64,000 nt of DNA from an uncultured bacterium (GTDB lineage Bacteria > Planctomycetota > UBA1135 > GCA-002686595): the NCBI GenBank assembly GCA_943787795.1, contig CALSNU010000004.1, forward strand, positions 640,001 through 704,000, in the 5' to 3' direction. The notes beneath the pieces are model-generated. The model worked only from the letters and a program-made list of their open reading frames with translations, did not search any database and was not told the origin of the DNA. The translations under genes were made by a program, and so were the position numbers. Below are positions 38,288 through 64,000 of the stretch, one piece after another (the first letter of the stretch is position 1; each line of letters opens with the position of its first letter).

Positions 38288-39111
38288 ATGCTCCGTTCCC
38301 TGCTCACCTGGTTCACCGTCGTCGCGATCGCCCTCGCGGTACCCCTCTTCCTTGGCCCCAACGCCAGCGCCAAGTCTGTGGCGCCCTGGGTCCTGGTCTC
38401 GGACGATGACGATAGCGGCGGTTCCGGGAAGTCCGGCAAGTCCGGCAAGTCAGGCAAGTCCAGGCAAGTCCGGGCAAGTCCGGCAAGTCAGGCAAGTCAG
38501 GCAAGTCAGGCAAGTCAGGTAAGTCCGGCAAGTCAGGGAAGTCGGGGAAGTCCGGCAAGTCAGGGAAGTCGGGCAAGTCCGGCAAGTCGGACGACGACGA
38601 CAGCGGCGGGTGCGGCGCCCACTGCGACCCGACAACGCCCTTCTGCTTCGCCGACTCGAGCGACTGCCCGTGCGGTAACGACGACCCGAACGGCGGCTGC
38701 ATCAACGGCTCGGGGCAGGGCGCGTTCATCACGGGCGCCGGCAGCACGAGCGTCGCCGAAGACGACCTGGTTCTCACCGCCTTCAGCCTCCCGCCCGGGA
38801 CCTTCGGTCAGTTCCTCATGGCGAGGAGCACCACGCGGCTGCCCCTGTCCAACAGTGGAGGCCTGCTGTGCGTCGCGCCTCCGGCAGGGGAGAAGATCTT
38901 CCGCATGATGCCCGGCGCTGTCAGCAGCATGGGCACGTTCGACGAGGGGCCCGGGATCGTCGCCTTCTCGAAGGCCTTCAACATGCCCCCGATCGGTCAG
39001 ATCGCCGCAGGCGAGACGTGGTACTTCCAGTTCTGGTTCCGCGATCTCGGGGGGCCGTGCCAGGAGCTGTCCGGGTCCTCGAGCGCCGTCGGGGTCACGT
39101 TCACCCCCTGA
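38288..39111 (+). CDS. Secreted protein with (SGK)18 tract, Cys-rich linker and shared C-terminal domain; frameshifted inside the repeat
   Basis: Signal peptide nearly identical to that of 39832. Two of the 9-bp SGK units have one extra base (~38460-38475). The downstream frame gives CDPTTPFC...CPCGNDD...TWYFQFWFRD...VTFTP. Confidence 0.75.
38423..38586 (+). repeat. 9-bp coding tandem repeat TCNGGNAAG (Ser-Gly-Lys) x18
   Basis: Counted directly; two units are 10 bp. Confidence 0.9.
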
Positions 39112-39831
39112 GGGAAGCCTGAGGGGAACACAGACAAGGGCGGGCCCATCCGGGCCTCGCGCTCACGGGCCGTTTGCTTCCAGGATGAAGCGGACGGCCC
39201 GACGCCGTGGGTGCGTGCCTCGGCGCGGGCCGCGATCACCGGTCCACCCAAGCGCCGCCGACCGCCGGGGCTCCCAACCGACCACCCGCGAGAGCGCTGG
39301 AGGCCTCCGCTTCGCGGACGCCCGTCCCCCCAGCCTCGACCCAAAGCTGGCGCACCGCTGGCATCGTCTTCATTCGGGCTGAGCCGATCCTGATCGCGCC
39401 AGCGGAACCGTCGCGACCTGGGCTCTCACCGCCCAGGCCTGTCAGCTCCCACTTTGTTGACCAACCTGCGCACGAGTCCGCTTCAACGCCGCCGCGGAGG
39501 TCGCCGCCCAGGTCACGCGAGGTCGAGGAAGCCGCGTCGTGGCGGGCCGGCAACGGCCGAGATTTGAGAGTTAGGGCATGTAGCTATGCCGCACAGCGAG
39601 TTCCCCAGTAGACCTGAGCTCGGTCCACAGCGAGGGGGATTCCAAGACTGAGAAGGCTCCCGAGATCGTGGACCGGCGCGGATGAACCAGACGCCCATTC
39701 GACGCCGAGTGAGCGGAGAGCAGGTAACCTCAGATGGGCAGTCCTATCGCTCGCGCTCGCCACTGCGACTCGCTTGGGACCACGACTCCTCCATCTTCAT
39801 TCCCTGGAAGCCTCTCCGGCCTCGATCTCCA

Positions 39832-40641
39832 ATGATCCGTTCAATCCTCACCTGGCTGACCGTCCTCACGGTTGCGCTCTCCGTCCCGCTCTTCCTCGGT
39901 CCCGATGCCAGCGCCACCCCGGTGGCGCCGTGGATGCTCGTCTCCGACGACGACGACAGCGGTGGTTCCGGTAGCTCCGGCAAGTCCGGCGGCAGCGGCG
40001 CCTCTGACGACGATGACAGCGGCGGCTCCGGTAGCTCCGGCAAGTCCGGCGGCAGCGGCGCCTCTGACGACGACGACAGCGGCGGTTCCGGTAGCTCTGG
40101 CAAGTCCGGCGGCTCCGGTGGCTCCGACGACGATGACAGTGGAGGCTGCGGTGGCCACTGTGACCCCACGACCCCCTACTGCTTGGCCGACCAAAACGAC
40201 TGCCCCTGCGGCAACGACGACCCCGCCGCCGGTTGCATCAACGGCTCCGGACAGGGCGCGATCATCACTGGAGAGGGCAGCGCCAGCGTGACCGCCGACG
40301 ACCTCCAGCTGACGGCGAGCGGGCTCCCCGCGAACACCACGGTTCTCTTCCTCGCGGCGGATGCCGCCCGGCGCGCCCCGTTCCTCGACGGACTCCTCTG
40401 CGTCGGCGGCCCGACCTCGAAGATCTATCGTCTTCCGCCCGCACTCAACTCCGGATCGAGTGGCGCGGCGACATTCGGCCCGGGGCTCATCGCCCTCTCG
40501 AACACCCCCGCCGTTCCCATCGTCGGCGGGATCGTCCCCGGCGACACCTGGTACTTCCAGACCTTCTTCCGCGACATGGGCGGCAGCTGCGGCACCGGCG
40601 GCAATGTCTCGAGCGCCGTGTCGATCACCTTCACCCCCTGA
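39832..40641 (+). CDS. Secreted paralog with (SDDDDSGGSGSSGKSGGSG[A/G])x3 tract and shared C-terminal domain
   Basis: 60-bp coding repeats at ~39943-40140; CPCGNDD, GLLCVGG, TWYFQTFFRD, VSITFTP. Confidence 0.85.
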   Translation: MIRSILTWLTVLTVALSVPLFLGPDASATPVAPWMLVSDDDDSGGSGSSGKSGGSGASDDDDSGGSGSSGKSGGSGASDDDDSGGSGSSGKSGGSGGSDDDDSGGCGGHCDPTTPYCLADQNDCPCGNDDPAAGCINGSGQGAIITGEGSASVTADDLQLTASGLPANTTVLFLAADAARRAPFLDGLLCVGGPTSKIYRLPPALNSGSSGAATFGPGLIALSNTPAVPIVGGIVPGDTWYFQTFFRDMGGSCGTGGNVSSAVSITFTP

Positions 40642-53896: not shown

Positions 53897-54025
53897 GTCA
53901 CCCCCATTGTCGCGGCGCCCCCCCGAACCCACGCGGATCTTCCGAAGAACCGCAGATCCCGCTCGAAGGACCCCCAGGGCTGCCCGAGCGCGCCGCAGCG
54001 CGTCGGGCGAGCTCGCGCTAGGGAC

Positions 54026-54165
54026 CGCTTCAGCGGCCCATCCCTTGGCCGGGCCCTGGGCCGAGGCCTAGGCCGGGGCGGTCATCGCCCCTCCCTTCTG
54101 TTCCCCTTCAACCACCCCCCACGATCCGCTGCTCCGCCAAGTGGCAGCTTGGATCGCTTATCCAC
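54026..54165 (+). mobile_element. IS91/ISCR-like ori-end remnant, copy A (~140 bp)
   Basis: Matches the region 3' of the transposase fragment in copies B and C; ends CTGCTCCGCCAAGTGGCAGCTTGGATCGCTTATCCAC. Confidence 0.8.
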
Positions 54166-54275
54166 CGGCAAGCCGCAGAGCACGCGCGGCCTGAGCCGGC
54201 GCCCGAGACGGCGCCTGATTCGGAGCCTCGGATGGCGCCTGAGATGGCGACCGAGGCGATGCTCGGCCGCGGCCC

Positions 54276-54711
54276 TCAGCCGTTCGGGGCGACGTCCTCG
54301 AGGTAGCCCGCGACCCACTCGCGGGCCGTGGCAGAGCGCTCCCCCGCGGGTGACCCGGACCGTGGAGCCCGCGCTGACGGGGAGCCCGGAGCCGAAGTCG
54401 ATGTGGTTGTCCCCGGCGCGCCCGGCGAGGTCCAGGTGGACGCCGTCGATGGTCAGCTGGGTAGAGCTAAAGGTCTCCTCGTGCCAGTCGCAGCCGCCGA
54501 GGCCCGTCAGGACGAGGATGCGCCCCTCGGGGACGACGAAGGGCGGGGACGAGCCGTCGATCCAGACGAGGTCCGCCGCGGCGGGGCGCCCGCTCCCGTG
54601 GGGCGTGCCGTATCCGCTGCCGGCCTGCGGGGCGAAGGCGGTCAGTCCGCCGAGGGTGAGGGCGAAGGCGGCGCCGAGGGCCGCGCTGCCGAGGTCGAGG
54701 GTGAGCTTCAT
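54276..54711 (-). CDS. Small secreted hypothetical protein with apparent +1 frameshift at 54341-54345
   Basis: MKLTLDLGSAALGAAFALTLGGLTAFA leader; removing one base gives ...TRGERSATAREWVAGYLEDVAPNG*. Confidence 0.5.
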
Positions 54712-54889
54712 GGATCCAGGGTACCGAAGGACGTGGCCAGCGAGCGGGCCGCGGGCGGGAGGGGCCCGACCGGTGCCACCGGCACTCAGCACCGCGAGGC
54801 CTCCGCACGGCCAGACCTCAGTTCCGGCAGACCTCGGTAGCGCTGGGTCTCAGCACCGCTTTACCTCAGTACCCGCCCCGCCCAGCCCT

Positions 54890-55687
54890 CGCCCCCCCCC
54901 ACCCTCGCCAGGGGCCGCCTCGAGGTCCGCGGGGACGGCCGGGTCAAGTGGACCCTCCGCCGCCCCTGGCGCGACGGCACGCGGGCCTTCGTCTTCGACC
55001 CCCTCACCTTCCTCGAGCGCCTCGTCGCCCTGGTCCCCCACCCGCGCGAGCACCAGTGGACCTACTTCGGCGTCCTCGCCCCCGCCTCGCCCCTGCGCGA
55101 TGCCGTCGTCCCCCGCCGCACCGTCCCCTCCCCCGCGCCAGGCATCGGCGAGGCCGAGCCCGAAGCTGAGCCCTGCGCCAAGGCACAGCGCCAGAGCTGG
55201 GCCGAACTCCTCCAGCGGACCTTCGCGGTGGACGTGCTGCGCTGCCCCACGTGCGGCGGCCGCCGCCACCGCGTCGCCACCCTCACCGACCCGCTCGTCG
55301 CGCGCCGGATCCTCAAGCACCTGCGTCTCCGCGCCGAGCCCCCACCCCTCGCGCCCGCCCGACCCGAGCCCCAGCTGCGCTTCGCCTGATCCGCCGCCCC
55401 AGGGCCACCGCAGCGCGCCCCCATCAACGCCGACGCCCCTCCCCTGAGGGCGCCGGCTGAATTTCATGCCCCGACAGGCCGGCGGCGAGGCGCATGGCGG
55501 GGGTTTCCCCGCATTGCCCGTTGCGAGGCTAGCCATTCTCCCCCACCGTCGATCATAGATCGCTTCAGCGGCCCCTCCCTGGGCCGGGCCCTCGGCCGGG
55601 GCGGTCCACGCCCCTCCCTTCTGTTCCCCTTCAACCACCCCCACGATCCGCTGCTCCGCCAAGTGGCAGCTTGGATCGCTTATCCAC
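54890..55687 (+). mobile_element. IS91/ISCR-like element 3' remnant, copy B: transposase C-terminal fragment (stop 55389) plus ori end
   Basis: Hand translation LARGRLEVRGDGRVKWTLRRPWRDGTRAFVFDPLTFLERLVALVPHPREHQWTYFGVLAPAS...SWAELLQRTFAVDVLRCPTCGGR...ILKHL matches the ISCR/IS91 transposase C-terminus; no start codon or N-terminal half. Confidence 0.88.
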
Positions 55688-55815
55688 CGAGCACGTCGAC
55701 CTTCTCCATGGAGCTGTCGTCGTCGCGGTCCTCCCACTTGTCGGAGAGGGAGTACATGGCCCTTGGCGCTGGCGCCCTGGATCTCCTTGGCGAGCTCCTG
55801 ATGGTCCATCTCCAG

Positions 55816-56214
55816 CTATCCACTGTTCAGCTCGTCGAGCTGGAGCTCAACGAGGGCATGGCCGCGCAAGTGCATCGCGTTGAAGCGGCGCGCAAGAGCA
55901 GCGGCCCGCTCGAGCCAGCGTGCAACCGTGTTCCAGGAGAGTCCCTCGAGACGCGCGATGGCTGACTTGTTGACGCCCTCGACGCTCAGGGCGGCGACGC
56001 GGTCGAACCGGGCCATGGAGTGCTGGATGCGTCCGTACGGCGTTCCAGTCCTGGCGCCGAAGGTCGTGTCGCACGCGGTGCAGCGGTACCGGCGTCGTCG
56101 TCCGCCCTTGACCTTGGAGTAGCCATGCAGGACGACGTTGCCCTCGTCGAGCCTGCCGTGCTGCTCGCACTCGTCGTTCGGGCAGGCCACTTGGGCCAGG
56201 GCCGCATTGCTCAT
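55816..56214 (-). pseudogene. Truncated IS1-family transposase (zinc ribbon + HTH, ends at the first DDE motif)
   Basis: CPNDEC...RYRCTACDTTF, GVNKSAIARLEGLSWNTVARWL, ELQLDEL then stop. Confidence 0.75.
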
Positions 56215-56508
56215 CTGGTCTCGCTCATGACGGCGCGAGTCTAGATCGGGCGCAACACAGGAGCCGCGTGGAGGTTACGCTCGATCTGCCACAGACGATG
56301 ACGGAAGCACCGCCTTGGCGGCAGAGAGCCTCGGCGGCCTGCGTGACGTGAAACGCGCCAGAAATTCGAGGGGGAAATTCTAGCTGGCGGGGCTGCAGCA
56401 CGAAGGCCTAGCGTGAAGACGCGGCGTGAATGTAGCCGCCCAAGTCCTGTCGCCCGACGGCCTCGCGCGTCGTTGTTCACGAAGAACAAACTGCCCTCAT
56501 CGCTCTCC

Positions 56509-59500
56509 ATGAAGCTGCCCCTCGTACTGCTAACACTCGCTGCCCTCCAGAGCACACTCGCCGCCTCCCCTCAGCGTCCAACGCTGCTCCCTGGCCAATC
56601 GAACTGGACGCCTTCACTCGAGGATGGGCCGCTGGCGACCTCTGACATGTCTGCGAACTCGGCCCAGAGCCTCGTGGACTTCCTGACGGCGCCCGGTGTC
56701 GTCACGGCGAACGCGAGCTTCCAGGGGGCGACCGTCGCAGGCGGAGTGTTCAACGGTGGCCTCGCGGCTTTCGGCATCGATAGCGGCGTCGTGCTCAGCT
56801 CCGGCAACGTCGCCACGATCGCTGGACCTCAGAATCAAGTGGATCTGGCCTCGACGTTCAACAACACGCCCGGCCTTCCTGGCACAGGCACCAACGACGC
56901 GGCCATCCTCGAGTTCACGGTCCAGAGTCCCACGGCAGATGTCATCTCGCTCCAGTTCATCTTCGCCTCGGAGGAGTACAGTGAGTTTGCGAATAGAGGC
57001 ATCAACGATGCGTTCTTGTGCCTTGTCAACGGCGTCAACTACGCGAAAGTACCCGGGACCAACTCGCCAATCTCGATCGATAACGTCAACTGCGGCTGCT
57101 CCACTGAATGCTTTGTCGGCCCGACATCGGGCGTCAACTGCCAGTATTTCATCGAGAACGACTGTGACGAGCTGGGGCTACCCTTCCCATGCTCCAACTT
57201 CCCCACCGAGATGGATGGGTTCACCACTCTCCTGACCATGACGGCTCCGATCGCCGCGGGGAGCAACTCTATTCAGCTCAGCGTGGCCGACGGCGTGGAC
57301 TTCATCGGCGACTCGGTGGTCCTGCTCCGGGAGGGGAGCCTGATGCTAGGCACTCCTGTCCCCGAGTTCACGCAGTCAACCCCGTGCGGCCAGGTGCTCT
57401 CCGTTCGCGAGGGCGAACTCCTTGAATTCGGGGTCTCAGCGGTCGCCCGAAACGGGCAGGTCAACCAGGACGTACGCATCGACCTTGTGTCGCCGCCCGG
57501 CGCTCTCAGTGGAGCGACCTTCGATCCGCCCCTGGGGACTCCCGGCCAACCGGCAGTGACTCAAGTTAGCTGGACACCATCCGCGGCGGACGTTGGACTT
57601 CAACTCGTGCGCTTCCGCGCCACGGATCAGCTCGGCGTTACCAGTGACTGCGAATTCCAGATCCTGGTCGAACCCACACCGCCCTTCGTCCCTTGTGAGG
57701 AGCGCCTGGCTGCGTCTTCAGAGCAGGCGCTGGACCGCCAGGGCACACAGGTTGACTACTCCGATGGTCGATCGATCCTCGGGTCCCCCGAGCGATCGGG
57801 CGCCGGGATGGTGACCATCCACGAGGAGATAGATAGCGTCTGGACCGAGGTGGCCGACATCCCCCACCCGGCACCCTCCGGTACCAACGATGTATTCGGA
57901 TGGTCCGTCGCCATTGATGGAGATTGGGCGGTCGTCGGCGCTCCGTTCGAGGGGACCGCGCAGGCGTTCAACGGGCCAGGAGCCACTTATGTATTCCGCC
58001 GGGACGCCAACGGAACCTGGGCGCTCTGGCAGCAACTCCTGCGCTCGGGGACGCAAACCCAGGACGACCGGTTTGGCTTCAGCGTGGACGTCACGGGCGA
58101 CTTCCTCGCGGTCGGCGCCTTCGGCGACAGCCAGGGAGGCGCGAACAACGGAGCCGTGTACGTCTATCGGCTCGTCAACGGGAGCACCTGGGTCTTCGAG
58201 GACAAGCTCCTCGCCACGCCGCTCCAGAACCAGCAGACCATCCGACTCGGAACCGGGGTCGCGATCGATGGCGGGACGGTGATCTCGGGGGCCCCATACG
58301 AGGACATCAACGGGCTCCAGAGCGCAGGTGCGGCCTACGTGTTCGAACGACAGACCAACTCGACGTGGGTCCAGTCCGCTCGCCTGACCACGCCGACGCT
58401 CGCCAGCGGCACCTTCTTCGGGGTGACGGTGGACGCGTTCGGGTCGCGGGTCATCGTCGGTGCCGAAGGGGTGGGCGGAGTCGGCGCCGCGTTCATCCAC
58501 GAACGCGCGCTCGGCGGCGGCTGGGGGCTGGAGGGGACCCTGACCCCCCAGGTTCCCTCACAGAACCTCACCTTCGGACAGGGCGTCCGGCTCTACGGCG
58601 GCCGCGCCGCCGTGAACGCGCGCAACGCGAGCGTTCAAGGGCAGCCCGTGGCCGGCGCGGTCGAGATCTTCGAGCTCGACGCCTCACTGAACTGGACCTA
58701 CGTTCGCACCCTCGCGAAGACCATGCCGGCAGCCTTCGATGCCTTCGGAGCAGGCATCGGCCTCGGAGATGGGGTCGCAATCGTTGGCTGCCCCGGCGAC
58801 GACGCCTCCGGCCTCATCGACGCTGGCGCGGCTTACCTGTTCGACCTGGGCATCGCCGACTGCAACTCGAACGGCACGGCGGACTCCTGCGACCTGGCCC
58901 TCGGCACGAGCCTGGACTGCAACGGGAACCTGGTGCCCGACGAGTGCGACCTCGCGGCGGGCCTGGCCGACTGCAACGCCAACGGCGTCCTCGACTCCTG
59001 CGAGATCCAGTCCGGAAGCGCCTCGGATTGCAACGGCAACGGCATCCCCGACAGCTGTGACATCGCATCCGGCTTCGCGACGGACTGTGACGGCAACGGG
59101 GTCCCGGACGCCTGCGACATCGCGAGCGACCCGTCCCTCGACTGCAACGGGGACTCCGTGATCGACTCCTGCCAGCTCGCGACGCTGGACTGCAACGGCA
59201 ACGGCCAGCTGGATCCCTGCGAGACGGCCGCGGACCCGAGCATCGACCTGAACTCGAACTCGGTCCCGGACTCGTGCGAGGCCGTTGGCATTCTCTACTG
59301 CACCCCGAATGCACCGAACTCGGAGTTCACCGGAGGAGGAAAGATGAGCGCGATCGGTACCGCCAACGTGGTCGCCAACGACGTTCGGATCTTCGCTTCC
59401 GACCTTCCGACGAACGCCTTCGGATTCTTCATCGCCTCGCGTTCGCCAGGATTTGTGCCGTTCGCTGGCGGGTCTCAGGGCATCCTGTGCCTGGGTGGGA

Positions 59501-59712
59501 CGGTTGGCCGGTACCAGGGGCAGATTCAAAGCTCTGGGTCGCTCAACGCCTTCTCGATCCAGATCGACAATCGATCGATTCCGTTCCCGAACGGGCTCGG
59601 TTTCACGAGCGTCGCGCCCGGTGAGCGTTGGCACTTCCAGGCTTGGTACCGAGATAGCCTCGGTGGCGTCGCCACGAGCAACCTGACCGAGGGCCTCTTC
59701 ATTCAGTATTGA
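56509..59712 (+). CDS. Large secreted protein: choice-of-anchor L-like domain, Ig-like domain, FG-GAP repeats, DCNxNGxPDxCD repeats, shared C-terminal domain
   Basis: Signal peptide; FIFASEEYSEF..INDAF; FGWSVAIDG..VVGAP repeats; seven-plus DCNGNG repeats; WHFQAWYRD...SNLTEGLFIQY. Confidence 0.88.
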   Translation: MKLPLVLLTLAALQSTLAASPQRPTLLPGQSNWTPSLEDGPLATSDMSANSAQSLVDFLTAPGVVTANASFQGATVAGGVFNGGLAAFGIDSGVVLSSGNVATIAGPQNQVDLASTFNNTPGLPGTGTNDAAILEFTVQSPTADVISLQFIFASEEYSEFANRGINDAFLCLVNGVNYAKVPGTNSPISIDNVNCGCSTECFVGPTSGVNCQYFIENDCDELGLPFPCSNFPTEMDGFTTLLTMTAPIAAGSNSIQLSVADGVDFIGDSVVLLREGSLMLGTPVPEFTQSTPCGQVLSVREGELLEFGVSAVARNGQVNQDVRIDLVSPPGALSGATFDPPLGTPGQPAVTQVSWTPSAADVGLQLVRFRATDQLGVTSDCEFQILVEPTPPFVPCEERLAASSEQALDRQGTQVDYSDGRSILGSPERSGAGMVTIHEEIDSVWTEVADIPHPAPSGTNDVFGWSVAIDGDWAVVGAPFEGTAQAFNGPGATYVFRRDANGTWALWQQLLRSGTQTQDDRFGFSVDVTGDFLAVGAFGDSQGGANNGAVYVYRLVNGSTWVFEDKLLATPLQNQQTIRLGTGVAIDGGTVISGAPYEDINGLQSAGAAYVFERQTNSTWVQSARLTTPTLASGTFFGVTVDAFGSRVIVGAEGVGGVGAAFIHERALGGGWGLEGTLTPQVPSQNLTFGQGVRLYGGRAAVNARNASVQGQPVAGAVEIFELDASLNWTYVRTLAKTMPAAFDAFGAGIGLGDGVAIVGCPGDDASGLIDAGAAYLFDLGIADCNSNGTADSCDLALGTSLDCNGNLVPDECDLAAGLADCNANGVLDSCEIQSGSASDCNGNGIPDSCDIASGFATDCDGNGVPDACDIASDPSLDCNGDSVIDSCQLATLDCNGNGQLDPCETAADPSIDLNSNSVPDSCEAVGILYCTPNAPNSEFTGGGKMSAIGTANVVANDVRIFASDLPTNAFGFFIASRSPGFVPFAGGSQGILCLGGTVGRYQGQIQSSGSLNAFSIQIDNRSIPFPNGLGFTSVAPGERWHFQAWYRDSLGGVATSNLTEGLFIQY

Positions 59713-59800
59713 AACGGGTCTCCCCCGCCATGCGGCGCGCGCGTCCTTGTCACGCTCCGCAGCTGCGAGGAAGCCTCGACACGGCCGTGGACGATGGGGG

Positions 59801-59998
59801 GGCCCCGGCCAGCTGGTGAACTCCGGCTCCACGGGCACGGCCGCCCTCCCCATCGACCTCGGCGCCATGCCCACCCCCACCGGCCTGGTCGCCGCCACCC
59901 TCTTCTCCACCTGGCACTTCCAGCTCTGGCACCGCGACGGCGTCAACGGCCAGAGCACCTCCAACTTCGCGGACGCCGTCGCGGTAACGTTCCAGTAG
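59801..59998 (+). pseudogene. Orphan 3' half of the shared C-terminal domain
   Basis: GPGQLVNSGSTG...IDLGAMPTPTG...TWHFQLWHRD...SNFADAVAVTFQ*, with no upstream gene body. Confidence 0.8.
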
Positions 59999-60048
59999 GC
60001 GGAGGCCGGACGGAAGAGAAGAGGAGCGACGAGCAGCCGTCGGGGAGA

Positions 60049-60753
60049 GTACGGAGTCGTAGCAACTATCGCGCACAACTCCGCCCTCGTCGCCCTGGTC
60101 CCCCACCCGCGCGAGCACCAGTGGACCTACTTCGGCGTCCTCGCCCCCGCCTCGCCCCTGCGCGATGCCGTCGTCCCCCGCCGCACCGTCCCCTCCCCCG
60201 GGCCAGGCATCGGCGAGGCCGAGCCCGAAGCTGAGCCCTGCGCCAAACCACAGCGCCAGAGCTGGGCCGAGCTCCTCCAGCGGACCTTCGCGGTGGACGT
60301 GCTGCGCTGCCCCACGTGCGGCGGCCGCCGCCACCGCGTCGCCACCCTCACCGACCCGCTCGTCGCGCGCCGGATCCTCAAGCACCTGCGTCTCCGCGCC
60401 GAGCCCCCACCCCTCGCGCCCGCCCGACCCGAGCCCCAGCTGCGCTTCGCCTGATCCGCCGCCCCAGGCCCACCGCAGCGCGCCCCGATCGACGCCGACG
60501 TCCCTCCCCTGAGGGCGCCGGCTCAACTTCGTGGCCCGCCAGGCCGGCGGCGAGGCCCAGGGTGGGGAGTTTTCCCGCATTGCCCGTTGCGAGGCTAGCT
60601 ATTCTCCCCCACAGTCGGTCATAGATCGCTTCAGCGGCCCCTCCCTGGGCCGGGCCCTCGGCCGGGGCGGGCATCGCCCCTCCCTCCTGTTCTCCTTCAA
60701 CCACCCCCACGATCCGCTGCTCCGCCAAGTGGCAGCTTGGATCGCTTATCCAC
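60049..60753 (+). mobile_element. Internally deleted IS91/ISCR-like element, copy C (putative ter end + transposase 3' fragment + ori end)
   Basis: Starts with 31-bp GTACGGAGTCGTAGCAACTATCGCGCACAAC (also in copy D), joined after 5 bp to sequence near-identical to 55020-55687. Confidence 0.85.
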
Positions 60754-60803
60754 TTCTGAGTGTGGCTAAATTGAACTACCAAAATGCGCCGGGCAGGCGT
60801 TCT

Positions 60804-61244
60804 ATGGCTACGGCGTACGTGATGTTCGCTTTGGCGTCGGGAACAGTGGCGTTCCAAAGCACAATGGCATCCTCCAGCGTCTCGGAGAAAGTATCCGCCA
60901 GAACTTTTGAAGTGCTCAACGCTGACGGGAATGTAGCGGCACGCATCGGTGCGAACGAGTTTGGGGGGACTTTCGAACTATTTAGAACAGACAAGGGAGA
61001 AGAACCGCGAGCTATCATCTGGGCCGGTTCGATGCTACCTGGTGGAGCGGAGATCATGGTCACTGCACCGGATGAGAGCGAGTCCAGCGTCTATCTCTCA
61101 GTGAGCGGCGAGCCTGCGACCCCATCTATCTCGGGTACGTTTGGGAAGACAACACCGAGTTTCAAAATAGGCTCTCGGAATGATGATTACCCCGTTCTTA
61201 AGCTGTGGAATGCCGACGGAAAAACAGTTCGCTTCGAGAAGTGA
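60804..61244 (+). CDS. Low-GC hypothetical exported protein (possibly 5'-truncated)
   Basis: Hydrophobic N-terminus, then KVSARTFEVLNADGNVAARIG beta-rich region; GC content visibly lower than the host. Confidence 0.55.
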   Translation: MATAYVMFALASGTVAFQSTMASSSVSEKVSARTFEVLNADGNVAARIGANEFGGTFELFRTDKGEEPRAIIWAGSMLPGGAEIMVTAPDESESSVYLSVSGEPATPSISGTFGKTTPSFKIGSRNDDYPVLKLWNADGKTVRFEK

Positions 61245-61505
61245 CCGTACGTAGTGGTTTCGGTGGTGTTTTTTTCTAGGCCGAGCGTACCAGCTCCATT
61301 CCTGTAGGATTAGGATTAATTCTTCTGCTGCTAGCCAAAAACATCAGCACGACAAACTCTACTAACAATCGTCTGGTCTCTACTACTTTTGCATGATGGA
61401 CGATGCTGCTAATCAGAACCTCTGGATATCTGTAGGCGGTGAGGCAACCCCAGGATAGTGGTCCAGCAGTTCTTGAAGATCTCGACTAGTACGAGACCTT
61501 GAACG

Positions 61506-61654
61506 GTGGATAAGCGATCCAAGCTGCCACTTGGCGGAGCAGGGGGTCGTGGGGGTGGTTGAAGGAGAACAGAAGGGAGGGGCGATGACCGCCCCGGGCC
61601 GACGGGATAGACCGGCACCGGGCGTTGTGCGCGATAGTTGCTACGACTCCGTAC
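61506..61654 (-). mobile_element. 149-bp non-autonomous mini IS91-like element, copy D (ter + ori ends only), inverted
   Basis: Reverse complement starts with the 31-bp end of copy C and finishes with the 37-bp ori terminus. Confidence 0.82.
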
Positions 61655-61658
61655 GTCC

Positions 61659-61874
61659 CTGACCAGCGTCACCAAGACGTGCGTACGCGCCGGCCTCCGT
61701 TACCCAACTCGACTCAAGATGTAGAGCAAATCACGACAACACGAACGCGCCCCCGCATCGACCATCGAAGTTGAAGGCCCGAAGCGGGGGCGCTCAAGGC
61801 AGCAGTTACGAGCGAACGTTCAACAGTGCCAAGGTATGTCCGTCAACGAGGGTTGACAGGTCCATCCACATCAG
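61659..61874 (+). repeat. 216-bp structured non-coding element, copy 1 (IS110/IS1111 end-like)
   Basis: Reverse complement of 63301-63515 except one extra C; ends TTGACAGGTCCATCCACATCAG; 10-bp stem GCGCCCCCGC/GCGGGGGCGC. Confidence 0.9.
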
Positions 61875-61909
61875 TGAAACGTCACCGCCAGACCGTTCGA
61901 GAAATTGCC
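61871..61909 (-). pseudogene. 13-codon remnant resembling the terminus of the shared C-terminal domain
   Basis: Minus strand reads GNFSNGLAVTFH*; the TGA lies within the first bases of the 216-bp element. Confidence 0.6.
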
Positions 61910-62071
61910 ATCGAGGAATTCCCCCCCCGACATATTTGGAGACTGGTAACCTCGAGCCAACGCTTCGGCTCGCAGGTTCTGGGCACTTCAGCATCTCGCG
62001 GCAGCCGAAACGTCCCTCTCTCGGCCACTCTTCAGTAGAGAGGCTGCCTCCGTACCTGCTCTGAGAACACT

Positions 62072-63088
62072 ATGAAGCTCTCCCTTCTCGCCATCGCGTT
62101 CGCGACCCTGCCCTCCCTGGCCCAGGCTCAGCTGATCCCCGACCGCGCGACGCTAAACGCGATCCTCGGCGGCGGCCAGACCCTCGAGGACTTCGAGGCG
62201 TTCAACGTCGCGGCCACCCAGGCAATGGGCATCGGGGTGATTATTCTCGACGATAGCACTCTCGCAGCTGGCCAAGGTCCCGGCCTCGTGGCACCCGGAG
62301 TCAGCTATGAGTGCGCCAACAACCAGCTGCAGTGGAACGGTGACATGTACTTTGGAATGGGTACCAAGACGTTCCTTGCCTTCGCCAGCGCCGGCGGGCA
62401 ACTCGACTTCCGGTACACGGCCCCCGTCACTGCCATGGGCGTGGACGTGACCAACTTCGAGGGGTTCGGGTTCACCGGACAGGCAACCATCAGGGACGTT
62501 GCCGGTGCGGTGGTGGGTACCGTGCCCTTCACCTTGAACGGCGGTCCCAACGAGCGGGTATTCGTCGGCTGGCAGCATGCCGGCGGGATCGGCCGCGTCG
62601 AGATCCAGAGCCCCGACTTCCCATGGAGCCCCGTGGTGGACGACCACGGCTACGGCGGCGGCGTGGGCCTTGGCACGAACTACTGCGGACCCGCCGCTCC
62701 GAATAGCACTGGCTCGCCTGCAACGATCACCGCGAGCGGTTCGAATAGCGCCGCAGCGAACGACCTCACTCTCACCGCAGGTTCTCTGCCGGCCAACTCG
62801 TTCGGCTACTTCCTGAACTCTCAGACCCAAGACCACGTCGTCAACGCCGGGGGAAGCCAAGGCACCTTGTGCCTGGGCGGCACGGTCGGCCGGCACAACG
62901 TGTCCGTGCTGAATTCGGGGGCGGTCGGAACCTATGCGTTGGCCCTGAACCTCACGGCTTTGCCGCAGCCGACGGCGACGGTAGCCGTCATGGCAGGCGA
63001 GACCTGGAATTTTCAGTCGTGGTACCGCGACGCGAACCCGGGGGTGACGAGCAACTTCACGGACGCCGTGAGCGTGACGTTCCAGTGA
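62072..63088 (+). CDS. Secreted protein with shared C-terminal domain
   Basis: MKLSLLAIAFATLPSLAQA leader; GTNYCGPAAPNSTG...GGSQGTLCLGG...WNFQSWYRD...SNFTDAVSVTFQ*. Confidence 0.88.
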   Translation: MKLSLLAIAFATLPSLAQAQLIPDRATLNAILGGGQTLEDFEAFNVAATQAMGIGVIILDDSTLAAGQGPGLVAPGVSYECANNQLQWNGDMYFGMGTKTFLAFASAGGQLDFRYTAPVTAMGVDVTNFEGFGFTGQATIRDVAGAVVGTVPFTLNGGPNERVFVGWQHAGGIGRVEIQSPDFPWSPVVDDHGYGGGVGLGTNYCGPAAPNSTGSPATITASGSNSAAANDLTLTAGSLPANSFGYFLNSQTQDHVVNAGGSQGTLCLGGTVGRHNVSVLNSGAVGTYALALNLTALPQPTATVAVMAGETWNFQSWYRDANPGVTSNFTDAVSVTFQ

Positions 63089-63523
63089 TGTGGATGGACC
63101 TGTCAACCCTCGTTGACGGACATACCTTGGCACTGTTGAACGTTCGCTCGTAACTGCTGCCTTGAGCGCCCCCGCTTCGGCCTTCAACTTCGATGGTCGA
63201 TGCGGGGGCGCGTTCGTGTTGTCGTGATTTGCTCTACATCTTGAGTCGAGTTGGGTAACGGAGGCCGGCGCGTACGCACGTCTTGGTGACGCTGGTCAGA
63301 CTGATGTGGATGGACCTGTCAACCCTCGTTGACGGACATACCTTGGCACTGTTGAACGTTCGCTCGTAACTGCTGCCTTGAGCGCCCCCGCTTCGGCCTT
63401 CAACTTCGATGGTCGATGCGGGGGCGCGTTCGTGTTGTCGTGATTTGCTCTACATCTTGAGTCGAGTTGGGTAACGGAGGCCGGCGCGTACGCACGTCTT
63501 GGTGACGCTGGTCAGACTGATGT
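63086..63523 (-). repeat. Tandem dimer of the 216-bp element (63086-63300, 63301-63516) followed by a terminal CTGATGT
   Basis: Exact 216-bp period; TGATGT occurs at 63086, 63302 and 63518. Confidence 0.9.
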
Positions 63524-63563
63524 TCGCGCGTCGGGGCGCAGTGCGGGGTTCGCCGTGGAGGGT

Positions 63564-63919
63564 CCGAGCCCCCACCCCTCGCGCCCGCCCGACCCGAGCC
63601 CCAGCTGCGCTTCGCCTGATCCGCCGCCCCAGGGCCACCGCAGCGCGCCCCGATCGACGCCGACGTCCCTCCCCTGAGAGCGCCGGCTGAACTTCGTGGC
63701 CCGACAGGCCGGCGGCGAGGCCCAGGGTGGGGAGTTTCCCCGCATTACCCGTTGCGAGGCTAGCCATTCTCCCCCACCGTCGATCATAGATCGCTTCAGC
63801 GGCCCCTCCCTGGGCCGGGCCCTCGGCCGGGGCGGGCCATCGCCCCTCCCTCCTGTTCTCCTTCAACCACCCCCACGATCCGCTGCTCCGCCAAGTGGCA
63901 GCTTGGATCGCTTATCCAC
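63564..63919 (+). mobile_element. IS91/ISCR-like 3' remnant, copy E (last transposase codons + ori end)
   Basis: Matches 55334-55687 and ends ...GGATCGCTTATCCAC. Confidence 0.85.
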
Positions 63920-63934
63920 CTCCACCGTCGAACG

Positions 63935-64000
63935 ATGAGAGGAAACTCGTCGAGGAATCTCGTGCTCGCGATCGCTGCCGTCCTCGTGGCGGCGGTGATC
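63935..64000 (+). CDS. 5' end of an exported/membrane protein (runs off the window)
   Basis: MRGNSSRNLVLAIAAVLVAAVI..., starting 15 bp after the copy E terminus. Confidence 0.5.
   Translation, partial: MRGNSSRNLVLAIAAVLVAAVI

Follow-up and report, generated by a model that had tools for sequence, protein, structure and literature searches.

The window analysed here is a 64,000-nucleotide (nt) stretch of the genome of an uncultured planctomycete, positions 640001-704000 of contig C4 in the assembly G000 (4.71 Mb in 8 contigs, about 69.6% G+C, 84.9% complete by marker genes). It contains a non-coding unit of 216 nt that is present in three copies and that at two junctions supplies, with its first three bases, the stop codon of a protein-coding sequence. 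These units probably derive from the non-coding region at the right end of an IS1111-type insertion sequence (IS) of the IS110 family and are relics without a transposase. The IS110/IS1111 parentage and the gene-sparing use of stop codons as targets are supported by comparison with full-length elements in related genomes. Anatomy, copy number, homology to the full-length ISs, association with the target and covariation were observed directly; the guidance of the parent element by RNA, the mode of duplication of the units and the loss of their mobility are inferred.

Anatomy of the units and their junctions

Unit A lies on the plus strand (61659-61873), while units B (63086-63301) and C (63302-63517) are on the minus strand. 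Unit A is written in the direction of the IS transposase and covers the 214 nt of the IS non-coding region that are nearest to the right end: it holds unit positions 1-214 with one extra G, ends ...GTTGACAGGTCCATCCACATCA, is recovered by blastn (99.5% identity), alignment and an nhmmer profile match, and according to blastn and the alignment diverges 2 nt short of the inner boundary of the unit. Unit B corresponds to the outermost 216 nt at the right end of the IS, and unit C is its tandem copy, 100% identical in a repeat search. The preliminary description of this DNA had reported three near-identical 216-nt copies devoid of a credible open reading frame (ORF), and we find them as such, the inverted copy lying one base away from where it had been placed; only overlapping high-GC reading frames are listed across the units, none of them credible.

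The hairpins and the TTGACA that had been seen near the unit end are likewise both present. In unit B the terminal extension TGATGT (63086-63091) is followed by the subterminal repeat GGATGGACC (63092-63100) and by a −35-like TTGACA on the minus strand (63101-63106), with 15 nt between this box and the end of the unit. A GC-rich hairpin pairs GCGCCCCCGC (63166-63175) with GCGGGGGCGC (63202-63211), and the outer-end hairpin of the unit is GTCAAC-n4-GTTGAC. The unit is predicted to fold somewhat more stably than its shuffled versions (z −2.15), with the GC-rich hairpin predominating. A consensus promoter and terminator scan of 61400-63700 detected nothing, and no Rfam family was matched in the window (54000-64000 against Rfam 15).

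The hexamer TGATGT stands at the start of unit B, at the start of unit C and directly after unit C, and the B/C junction falls at this 6-nt repeat. Beyond unit C the minus strand continues for 46 nt into the interior of the IS (63518-63563, IS coordinates 217-263, the blastn alignment to the full-length IS of locus L014 reaching IS position 263); in this stretch the right-end hexamer TGATGT recurs as an internal copy (63518-63523), together with the 3' hairpin of the guide-like RNA considered below. Other repeats border the inner side of each relic: unit A is abutted and truncated by a short repeat on the minus strand (repeat X, 61616-61657, GACGTACGGAGTCGTAGCAACTATCGCGCAC...), and the relic after unit C is truncated by the third copy of a locus-specific repeat on the plus strand (63564-63931), which elsewhere (55334-55699, 60399-60765) follows an ISCR/IS91-like transposase fragment.

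Both junctions with coding sequence are as they were first described, the TGA of the unit being the stop codon. Unit B adjoins a plus-strand gene of 338 amino acids (aa) from the ORF list (62072-63088, protein end ...SNFTDAVSVTFQ), one of a large set of genes with a common C-terminal domain (CTD); its stop codon TGA (63086-63088) consists of the first three bases of the unit, and the junction reads GTGACGTTCCAG joined to TGATGTGG (VTFQ). On the minus strand unit A abuts a remnant of a different CTD paralog (61874-61909), which comprises the last 12 codons (GNFSNGLAVTFH) and is likewise joined to the unit as GTGACGTTTCAC to TGATGTGG; no CTD-like sequence was found farther upstream of the remnant. 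The remnant is identical to the corresponding gene end (63050-63085) at 24 of 36 nt, the best other paralog in the genome reaching 27/36, whereas the units differ by one 1-nt insertion over 214 aligned positions. This disparity indicates two junctions and not one duplicated insertion, the shared ancestral event that the preliminary description had set against its own proposal.

Could the tandem of units B and C be an assembly artefact of a single unit? Short-read assemblers can miscount short tandem repeats; only contigs could be placed on the locus, and none of them spans the whole locus or both units. On the other hand, in each of two studies a DNA contig passes from one unit into the next with 0 differences (X1 record 4, 63086-63329; X5 record 26, 63111-63337), and such a junction is present in the DNA of both, one of the runs possibly being the source of the assembly. 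We therefore regard the artefact as very improbable. A further DNA contig is identical to 61846-63115 without a single difference, and the stretches that the DNA runs leave uncovered (61722-61795 and 63350-63497) are uninformative, being collapsed repeats.

Association with the ends of CTD genes

The CTD, about 130 aa long, forms the shared end of about 93 genes of this genome (pattern ...W-x-FQ-x-WYRD...SNFT-x-A/G-x-x-V/I-TFQ). No Pfam or NCBIfam family matched it, its Atlas neighbours are Planctomycetota clusters, and it may be a sorting or anchoring domain. A tblastn search located 96 CTD-type gene-end loci, gene 62072-63088 included. The element stands behind only one of the 93 intact CTD gene ends, that at 63086; the 92 unoccupied ends close with TGA (73), TAG (14) or TAA (5), and the empty-site sequence CAG/TGATGTTCGCG follows none of them. 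The many copies at such sites that would have counted as support did not materialise: blastn and the nhmmer profile find only three in the whole assembly, all in one 1.9-kb locus, and no IS110-family transposase was matched in the assembly by a PF01548 search or by tblastn, at the completeness given above. CTD-type gene ends near 39109 and 40639 accompany another repetitive region of the window (38288-40359), where 60-nt tandem repeats are combined with a duplicated stretch of about 1.5 kb; the repeat appears to encode a Ser/Asp/Gly-rich sequence.

The association with CTD genes becomes evident from other genomes. Matches to the unit occur in 9 of 61 related genomes, G000 included; one is a full-length match at 78%, and several of the others are 22-33 nt long, 93-100% identical, confined to unit positions 1-35 and again located behind a CTD last codon. 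When one genome per prokaryote species was scanned for exact matches to a degenerate 20-nt end pattern, 37 were found, 31 of them directly behind a CTD-type last codon and all 31 beginning with TGA; the remaining six lie in unrelated contexts, some in other phyla. The hosts include Planctomycetota metagenome-assembled genomes (MAGs) and Saltatorellus ferox Poly30. What the relatives share behind the CTD last codons is an end of 22-24 nt, and the domains behind which it sits terminate variously in ...TFQ, TFE, TFR, VFD, TWLP, TWAP, VFCP and so on. Two single MAGs carry four copies each, behind four different CTD genes (L012, L013, L016 and L041 in one, L026, L028, L031 and L036 in the other). 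Targeting of the conserved terminal codons of a multicopy gene family, as first proposed, is supported by these counts and by the roughly 92 unoccupied paralog ends of G000; random flanks, which were to speak against it, are not what the 31 of 37 sites display.

Variants of the shared 24-mer are non-synonymous and its third codon positions are invariant, which points to constraint on the nucleotides and not on a peptide. A read-through or selenocysteine reading of the TGA (UCGWTCQ...) was rejected on the same grounds, variants such as TGATAT and TGATGTCGATGGATC being non-synonymous with constant third positions.

The parent element in related genomes

To what kind of element does this end belong? 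In 6 of the 31 loci an ORF with PF01548 (DEDD_Tnp_IS110) and/or PF02371 (Transposase_20) lies just past the unit, on the strand opposite to the CTD gene, the kind of gene for which longer copies were to be checked; 7 of the 31 loci had less than 600 nt of downstream sequence. Four of the six loci are full length (L011, L013, L014, L045) and two partial (L016, L017), so that the set comprises five full or near-full copies, one of them an internal-deletion derivative, and one truncated copy. The L016 derivative retains both IS ends around a deleted interior; this arrangement, which defines miniature elements of the MITE type, is not seen in the units of the window. With NF033542, 'IS110 family RNA-guided transposase', the L014 transposase reaches 259 bits (cut-off 140); it contains GLTPSIYASG, and PMC11187229 gives GL-P----S/TG as a motif of the C-terminal domain of IS1111-type transposases.

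Similarity between the copies is unbroken from the TGA through the transposase gene and stops 1,556-1,633 nt away at ...GGTCCATCCAT-SYYSTC. Each end carries one arm of a subterminal inverted repeat: GGATGGACC is set back by 6 nt at the right end and GGTCCATCC by 8 nt at the left end, and the two arms vary in concert among subgroups (GGGTGGACC, GGACGGAC). Directly outside the left end stands TAG, TAA or TGA, with no second stop behind. In the transposase sense the layout is accordingly host stop (reverse complement), left end, transposase gene (about 370 aa, starting less than 100 nt inside the left end), non-coding region (about 350-430 nt long in 14 ISs and 630 nt in L056), right end ...TTGACAGGTCCAYCCAYATCA and last sense codon (reverse complement). 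The presence of an inverted left-arm partner and of a host stop on the far side of the transposase places the unit inside the IS. Of this structure the window keeps the right-end arm only: no left-arm partner of the GGTCCATCC type adjoins any unit or was found elsewhere in G000, by a motif scan (among the matches listed) or by nhmmer. The IS110-like appearance of the end is substantiated by these full-length copies with their subterminal repeats and IS1111 layout, and the proposal that the insertion supplies a TGA and does not break the gene fits them as well.

Within the distal 216 nt, three places are kept among relatives: the first 15 nt or so, the GC hairpin, and the last 21 nt or so with the −35-like TTGACA and the repeat arm. 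In a circular intermediate the left end would supply GAGCAT or CAGGAT as a weak −10 box at a spacing of 17 nt from the TTGACA. IS200/IS605-type elements, an integron attC site, a diversity-generating retroelement and a tyrosine-recombinase att site had been considered and were dropped after the transposase and inverted repeats were found. An IS91-type origin of the unit was rejected too, for only the neighbouring repeat is ISCR/IS91-like.

A different explanation would make the element a vertically inherited 3' untranslated region or terminator of CTD genes, immobile in itself and merely bordered by IS110-type insertions. The element does always begin at the stop codon, its conserved GC-rich hairpin is followed by a side that is T-rich on the gene strand, and contigs from RNA libraries cover the gene end and the unit. 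Against this stand its presence at just 1 of 93 intact CTD ends here, its association with different paralogs in different genomes, the inverted subterminal partner and the host stop beyond the transposase, the continuity of IS similarity from the unit through the transposase gene, and a simple terminator scan that came back empty. We consider such an origin highly unlikely.

Relics of the IS in public genomes end at many lengths, from about 21 to 793 nt (among them about 21-24, 35, 83, 93, 103, 120 and 450 nt). All of them were found by the right-end pattern, and their keeping that end is a matter of ascertainment. Locus L030 was discarded as an instance of a break at the 216-nt site, IS-like sequence running on to about 240 nt. 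Among metagenome contigs a unit-specific 26-nt pattern had 0 matches and a subfamily pattern had 2, both of them truncated relics without transposase. At L029 (5000-5100) two convergent CTD genes meet at a pair of truncated right ends placed back to back (TGATGTGGATGGACC...~50 nt...GGTCCATCCACATCA/CTGGAAC), a head-to-head relic reminiscent of the inverted units A and B in the window.

A predicted guide-like RNA that follows the target

A protein search recovered relatives of the transposase in 29 of 151 family genomes, at 30 loci of which 17 have a recognisable right end, and a CTD gene end flanks at least 9 of these 17. Exact k-mer searches (at least 6 nt) of each non-coding region against its own target yielded no consistent position; the guides emerged only when the non-coding regions were aligned from a conserved anchor. 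The guide-like region lies about 215-320 nt from the IS right end and consists, in this order, of CTCG, motif 1, TTGGGC, a variable hairpin, GCCCG, motif 2, (Y)GAG, a spacer, the hairpin CTGCGG...CCGCG, the copy of the right-end hexamer and nnCTGAC. In an alignment of 10 ISs (A4) the consensus fold has 27 pairs, 93.5% paired, and compensatory changes are observed at 13 pairs, as opposed to 5.7±1.5 in shuffled alignments (0 of 500 reach the observed number) and 2-7 in slid controls. Motifs 1 and 2 are the two sides of one internal loop of this fold. Four relatives' loci searched against Rfam gave no family either; the scans of the window and of these loci together returned only one chance-level match to a small RNA.

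Motif 1, the 5' side of the loop, reproduces the final 5-10 nt of the element's own target gene in sense orientation. Motif and gene end both read TTCCAA in L050, TGTCCG in L063 and ACCGCCT in L055; L014 has ATTTTCAG for a gene ending in ACTTCCAG, and L048 has TATTCGAG for CGTTTGAG. Over 16 ISs, 69 of 96 positions are identical between motif and own target, compared with 41.5±5.4 when the pairs are shuffled (0/20000 as high); shuffling within two subgroups only gives 9/20000. Motif 2, the 3' side, corresponds to the reverse-complemented stop codon and the first bases of the left end, and its triplet is identical to the one just outside the left end in all of 12 ISs, which represent four types (CTA, TTA, TCA, TGA), with the left-end boundary of L057 and L063 placed by eye. 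With 'top' taken as the transposase direction, the top-strand match is 5' of the bottom-strand match. The internal hexamer, finally, is the same as the right-end hexamer in 12 of 14 ISs (ACATCA, ATATCA, ATCTCA), and the sequence just inside it also resembles the right-end repeat (CCATCC / CCAACCC).

The IS of genome G027 departs from the CTD targets altogether. It is present in three identical copies, and the two whose flanks were examined (L055, L077) lie not behind a CTD gene but in a palindrome resembling repetitive extragenic palindromes (REP), ACCGCC-TGA/AGGCGGT (...GGAGTACCGCC-TGA/AGGCGGT...), with both motifs changed to match. This looks like a natural retargeting event and is the clearest independent support for the guide reading. 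Judging from such covariation, target choice is most likely RNA-guided, and the guide-like RNA would presumably be produced and bound by the transposase.

In G000 the profile of the guide region matches only 63508-63560, at profile positions 87-142, which comprise the 3' hairpin and the right-end copy; motifs 1 and 2 are absent. The suggestion that the 216-mer itself is a guide module has to be abandoned in this respect: the parts that change in step with the target are located beyond the unit, 215-320 nt from the IS end, and the window retains no more than the 3' half of this region. The resemblances to the target that had been pointed out within the unit, ACGTTC-aa-CAGTG and CGTCACC, look like chance, since in the closest relatives, L014 and L023, the equivalent positions stay independent of the target.

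Origin of the units

What could be the mechanism behind the observed arrangement? In the relatives the intact IS of 1.56-1.63 kb lies convergent to a CTD gene, its right end ...TTGACAGGTCCATCCACATCA directly adjoining the last sense codon; a TCA brought in by the IS is read as TGA on the gene strand and becomes the stop codon, the gene's own stop is found at the left end of the IS, and the protein remains unchanged. The non-coding region would encode a structured RNA with the motif-1/motif-2 loop, the 3' hairpin and, after it, a repeat of the right end's terminal 6 nt. The segment that survives in G000 extends from this internal right-end copy to the true right end, once at the CTD remnant and twice in tandem at the intact CTD gene. 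The tandem probably arose by duplication between two 6-nt direct repeats (TGATGT on the gene strand), namely the IS end and its internal copy, and the rest of the IS would have been lost to the neighbouring rearrangements marked by repeat X and the ISCR-associated repeat.

Several observations weigh against this account. Three breaks fall at or within 2-6 nt of one internal site (unit A, the B/C junction and L032), which exceeds the expectation of simple decay and favours a mobile module; no closer copy that could be the parent of the window's subfamily was found; and a transposase copy could sit in the unassembled part of a genome that is 85% complete. Contigs from RNA libraries cover parts of the gene and 63295-63522, a cover that is not evidence of transcription. 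As to the guide, the guide fold predicted for a single sequence gains no stability over its shuffled versions (z 0.26), motif 1 typically agrees with its target at 5-7 of 8 positions and only poorly in L049 (TTCCGA vs TTCCAG), the TFQ-type subgroup alone gives no significant signal for motif 1 (2919/20000), related ISs share targets and the permutation overstates the motif-1 signal to that extent, and L061 and L064 have one base mismatch each between the internal and terminal hexamers.

The recurrence of breaks brings up the possibility that the 216-nt segment is, or was, a separately mobilisable non-autonomous module with the right-end hexamer on both sides, akin to ssr9 of Pseudomonas putida; a transposase acting in trans would have excised it as a minicircle and re-inserted it, leaving the solo unit A and the tandem B/C before the parent was lost. 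TGATGT does stand at either boundary of the unit, its internal copy varies together with the true end, and the resemblance to the right-end repeat extends to the sequence inside that copy (CCATCC / CCAACCC). Unit A breaks at 214, the B/C junction at 216, and the internal deletion of L032 runs from immediately behind this hexamer to another GATGT. Near-identity of the units (a 1-nt insertion over 214) contrasts with the 67% identity of the paralog ends at which they stand, and the contigs of two studies over the unit-unit junction would fit a tandem or a circle. Modular minicircles have a published precedent in an IS110-family element (PMC12288879).

Against such a module, the unit lacks a left-end repeat, and no GGTCCATCC-type partner occurs in the genome among the matches listed. 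Only the outer side of the solo unit A adjoins a target; on the inner side repeat X stands in place of the stop codon and 3' untranslated region expected of a guided insertion. No solo unit with canonical flanks is seen in the 31+2 public loci, where relic lengths vary, and 6-nt microhomology alone suffices for the tandem duplication. On balance we judge independent mobilisation unlikely, with an appreciable residual chance. In that case the guide-segment DNA matching the right end would act as a pseudo-end, at which the recombinase excises, duplicates and perhaps moves the 216-nt segment, and the units in the window would be products of its action and not of random decay, a scenario to which we assign a minor share of the probability; the unit would then be a hitch-hiking mini-element of a stop-codon-targeting, RNA-guided IS. 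Descent from a decayed IS right end is the explanation that we prefer.

Neighbouring repeats

Repeat X, about 40 nt long (GACGTACGGAGTCGTAGCAACTATCGCGCACAAYGCCCGGTG...), has four copies in the genome with a common start base (61616-61657, 60046-60080, C1:340135-340176 and C6 near 187351), two of them beside CTD gene fragments and one beside an ISCR-like transposase fragment. C-terminal fragments of ISCR/IS91-family transposases are located at 54841-55389 and 59999-60454 (NCBIfam ISCR clade Ia, E 1.4e-25, partial); the latter is cut at 60085, and a weaker relative lies on C2 at about 714.9-715.2 kb. Some 50 nt upstream of repeat X and an ISCR-like fragment, an 83-aa ORF (59747-59998) consists of a CTD end only (...NFADAVAVTFQ-TAG) and represents another broken CTD gene. 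The locus-specific repeat of about 360 nt (55334-55699, 60399-60765, 63564-63931) has shorter copies at 54023-54167 and, inverted, at 61504-61605, as well as one at C6:194386-194603. Its last 100 nt or so (...CCAAGCTGCCACTTGGCGGAGCAG...) recur upstream of several genes in both orientations, with no Rfam match, and the repeat may be a shared promoter or 5' leader, or the end of a mobile element.

Comparison with known systems

Bridge RNAs of IS621-type IS110 elements, described by Durrant and colleagues in 2024, reportedly have an internal loop between stems, with guide segments for both strands. The relatives' guide-like RNA is similar to these in its stem-flanked loop and in the separate segment that copies the element's own end. 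It differs in lying 3' and not 5' of the transposase; a second complete donor-binding loop was not identified in it, and it has no match in Rfam.

The likeness to IS1111 elements with seekRNAs (ISEc11, ISKpn4, ISPa11; Siddiquee et al. 2024, PMC11187229) is closer. That study describes the IS1111 layout as comprising a downstream non-coding region, subterminal inverted repeats and a terminal −35 box, with the top-strand match lying 5' to the bottom-strand one. The full-length ISs of the relatives share with these elements the DEDD/PF02371 transposase with its GL-P----SG motif, subterminal repeats with short extensions, a long downstream non-coding region, a right-end TTGACA, strict specificity for site and orientation, and two segments of the non-coding region that match opposite target strands, the top-strand one being 5'. 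They differ in the longer non-coding region (about 350-430 nt, of which about 210 nt follow the guide-like region) and the longer transposase (about 370 aa vs 330-350). The targets are also unlike, since here they are the last codons and the stop of protein-coding paralogs, for which the IS supplies a replacement stop; and the copies in the window are devoid of the transposase, the left end and the target-matching segments.

Two further cases are instructive. ISPpu9 of P. putida has in ssr9 a non-coding module downstream of an IS110-family transposase, bounded by copies of the IS end boxes and also found in solo copies elsewhere in the genome (PMC12288879), with which the unit in the window invites comparison; ssr9 has both box types (A', B') and its minicircles were shown experimentally. 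Here, in contrast, only the right-end hexamer is repeated, without a left-end-like box. ISEc21, an IS110-type element, is RNA-guided and targets conserved codons of many paralogous genes, those of IS3-family transposases (PMC11187229); that element interrupts the coding sequence, whereas the IS of the relatives would enter after the last sense codon and leave the protein unchanged. A full-text literature search, which left out ISfinder and supplements, found no description of IS110/IS1111 elements targeting stop codons or the CTD.

The feature in G000 is probably a fossil, one that nevertheless points to an IS1111-type family in marine Planctomycetota, in the Saltatorellus group and related MAGs. 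For such elements the CTD family, with its roughly 90 members, would provide many safe landing sites, where each insertion swaps the stop codon and keeps the protein intact. The subfamilies that match TFQ, TFE, ICP, WLP and similar ends, and in one instance a REP-like palindrome, with two loop segments changed to match, would represent natural examples of reprogramming, and the family may prove to be useful comparative material for the rules of seekRNA and bridge-RNA targeting.

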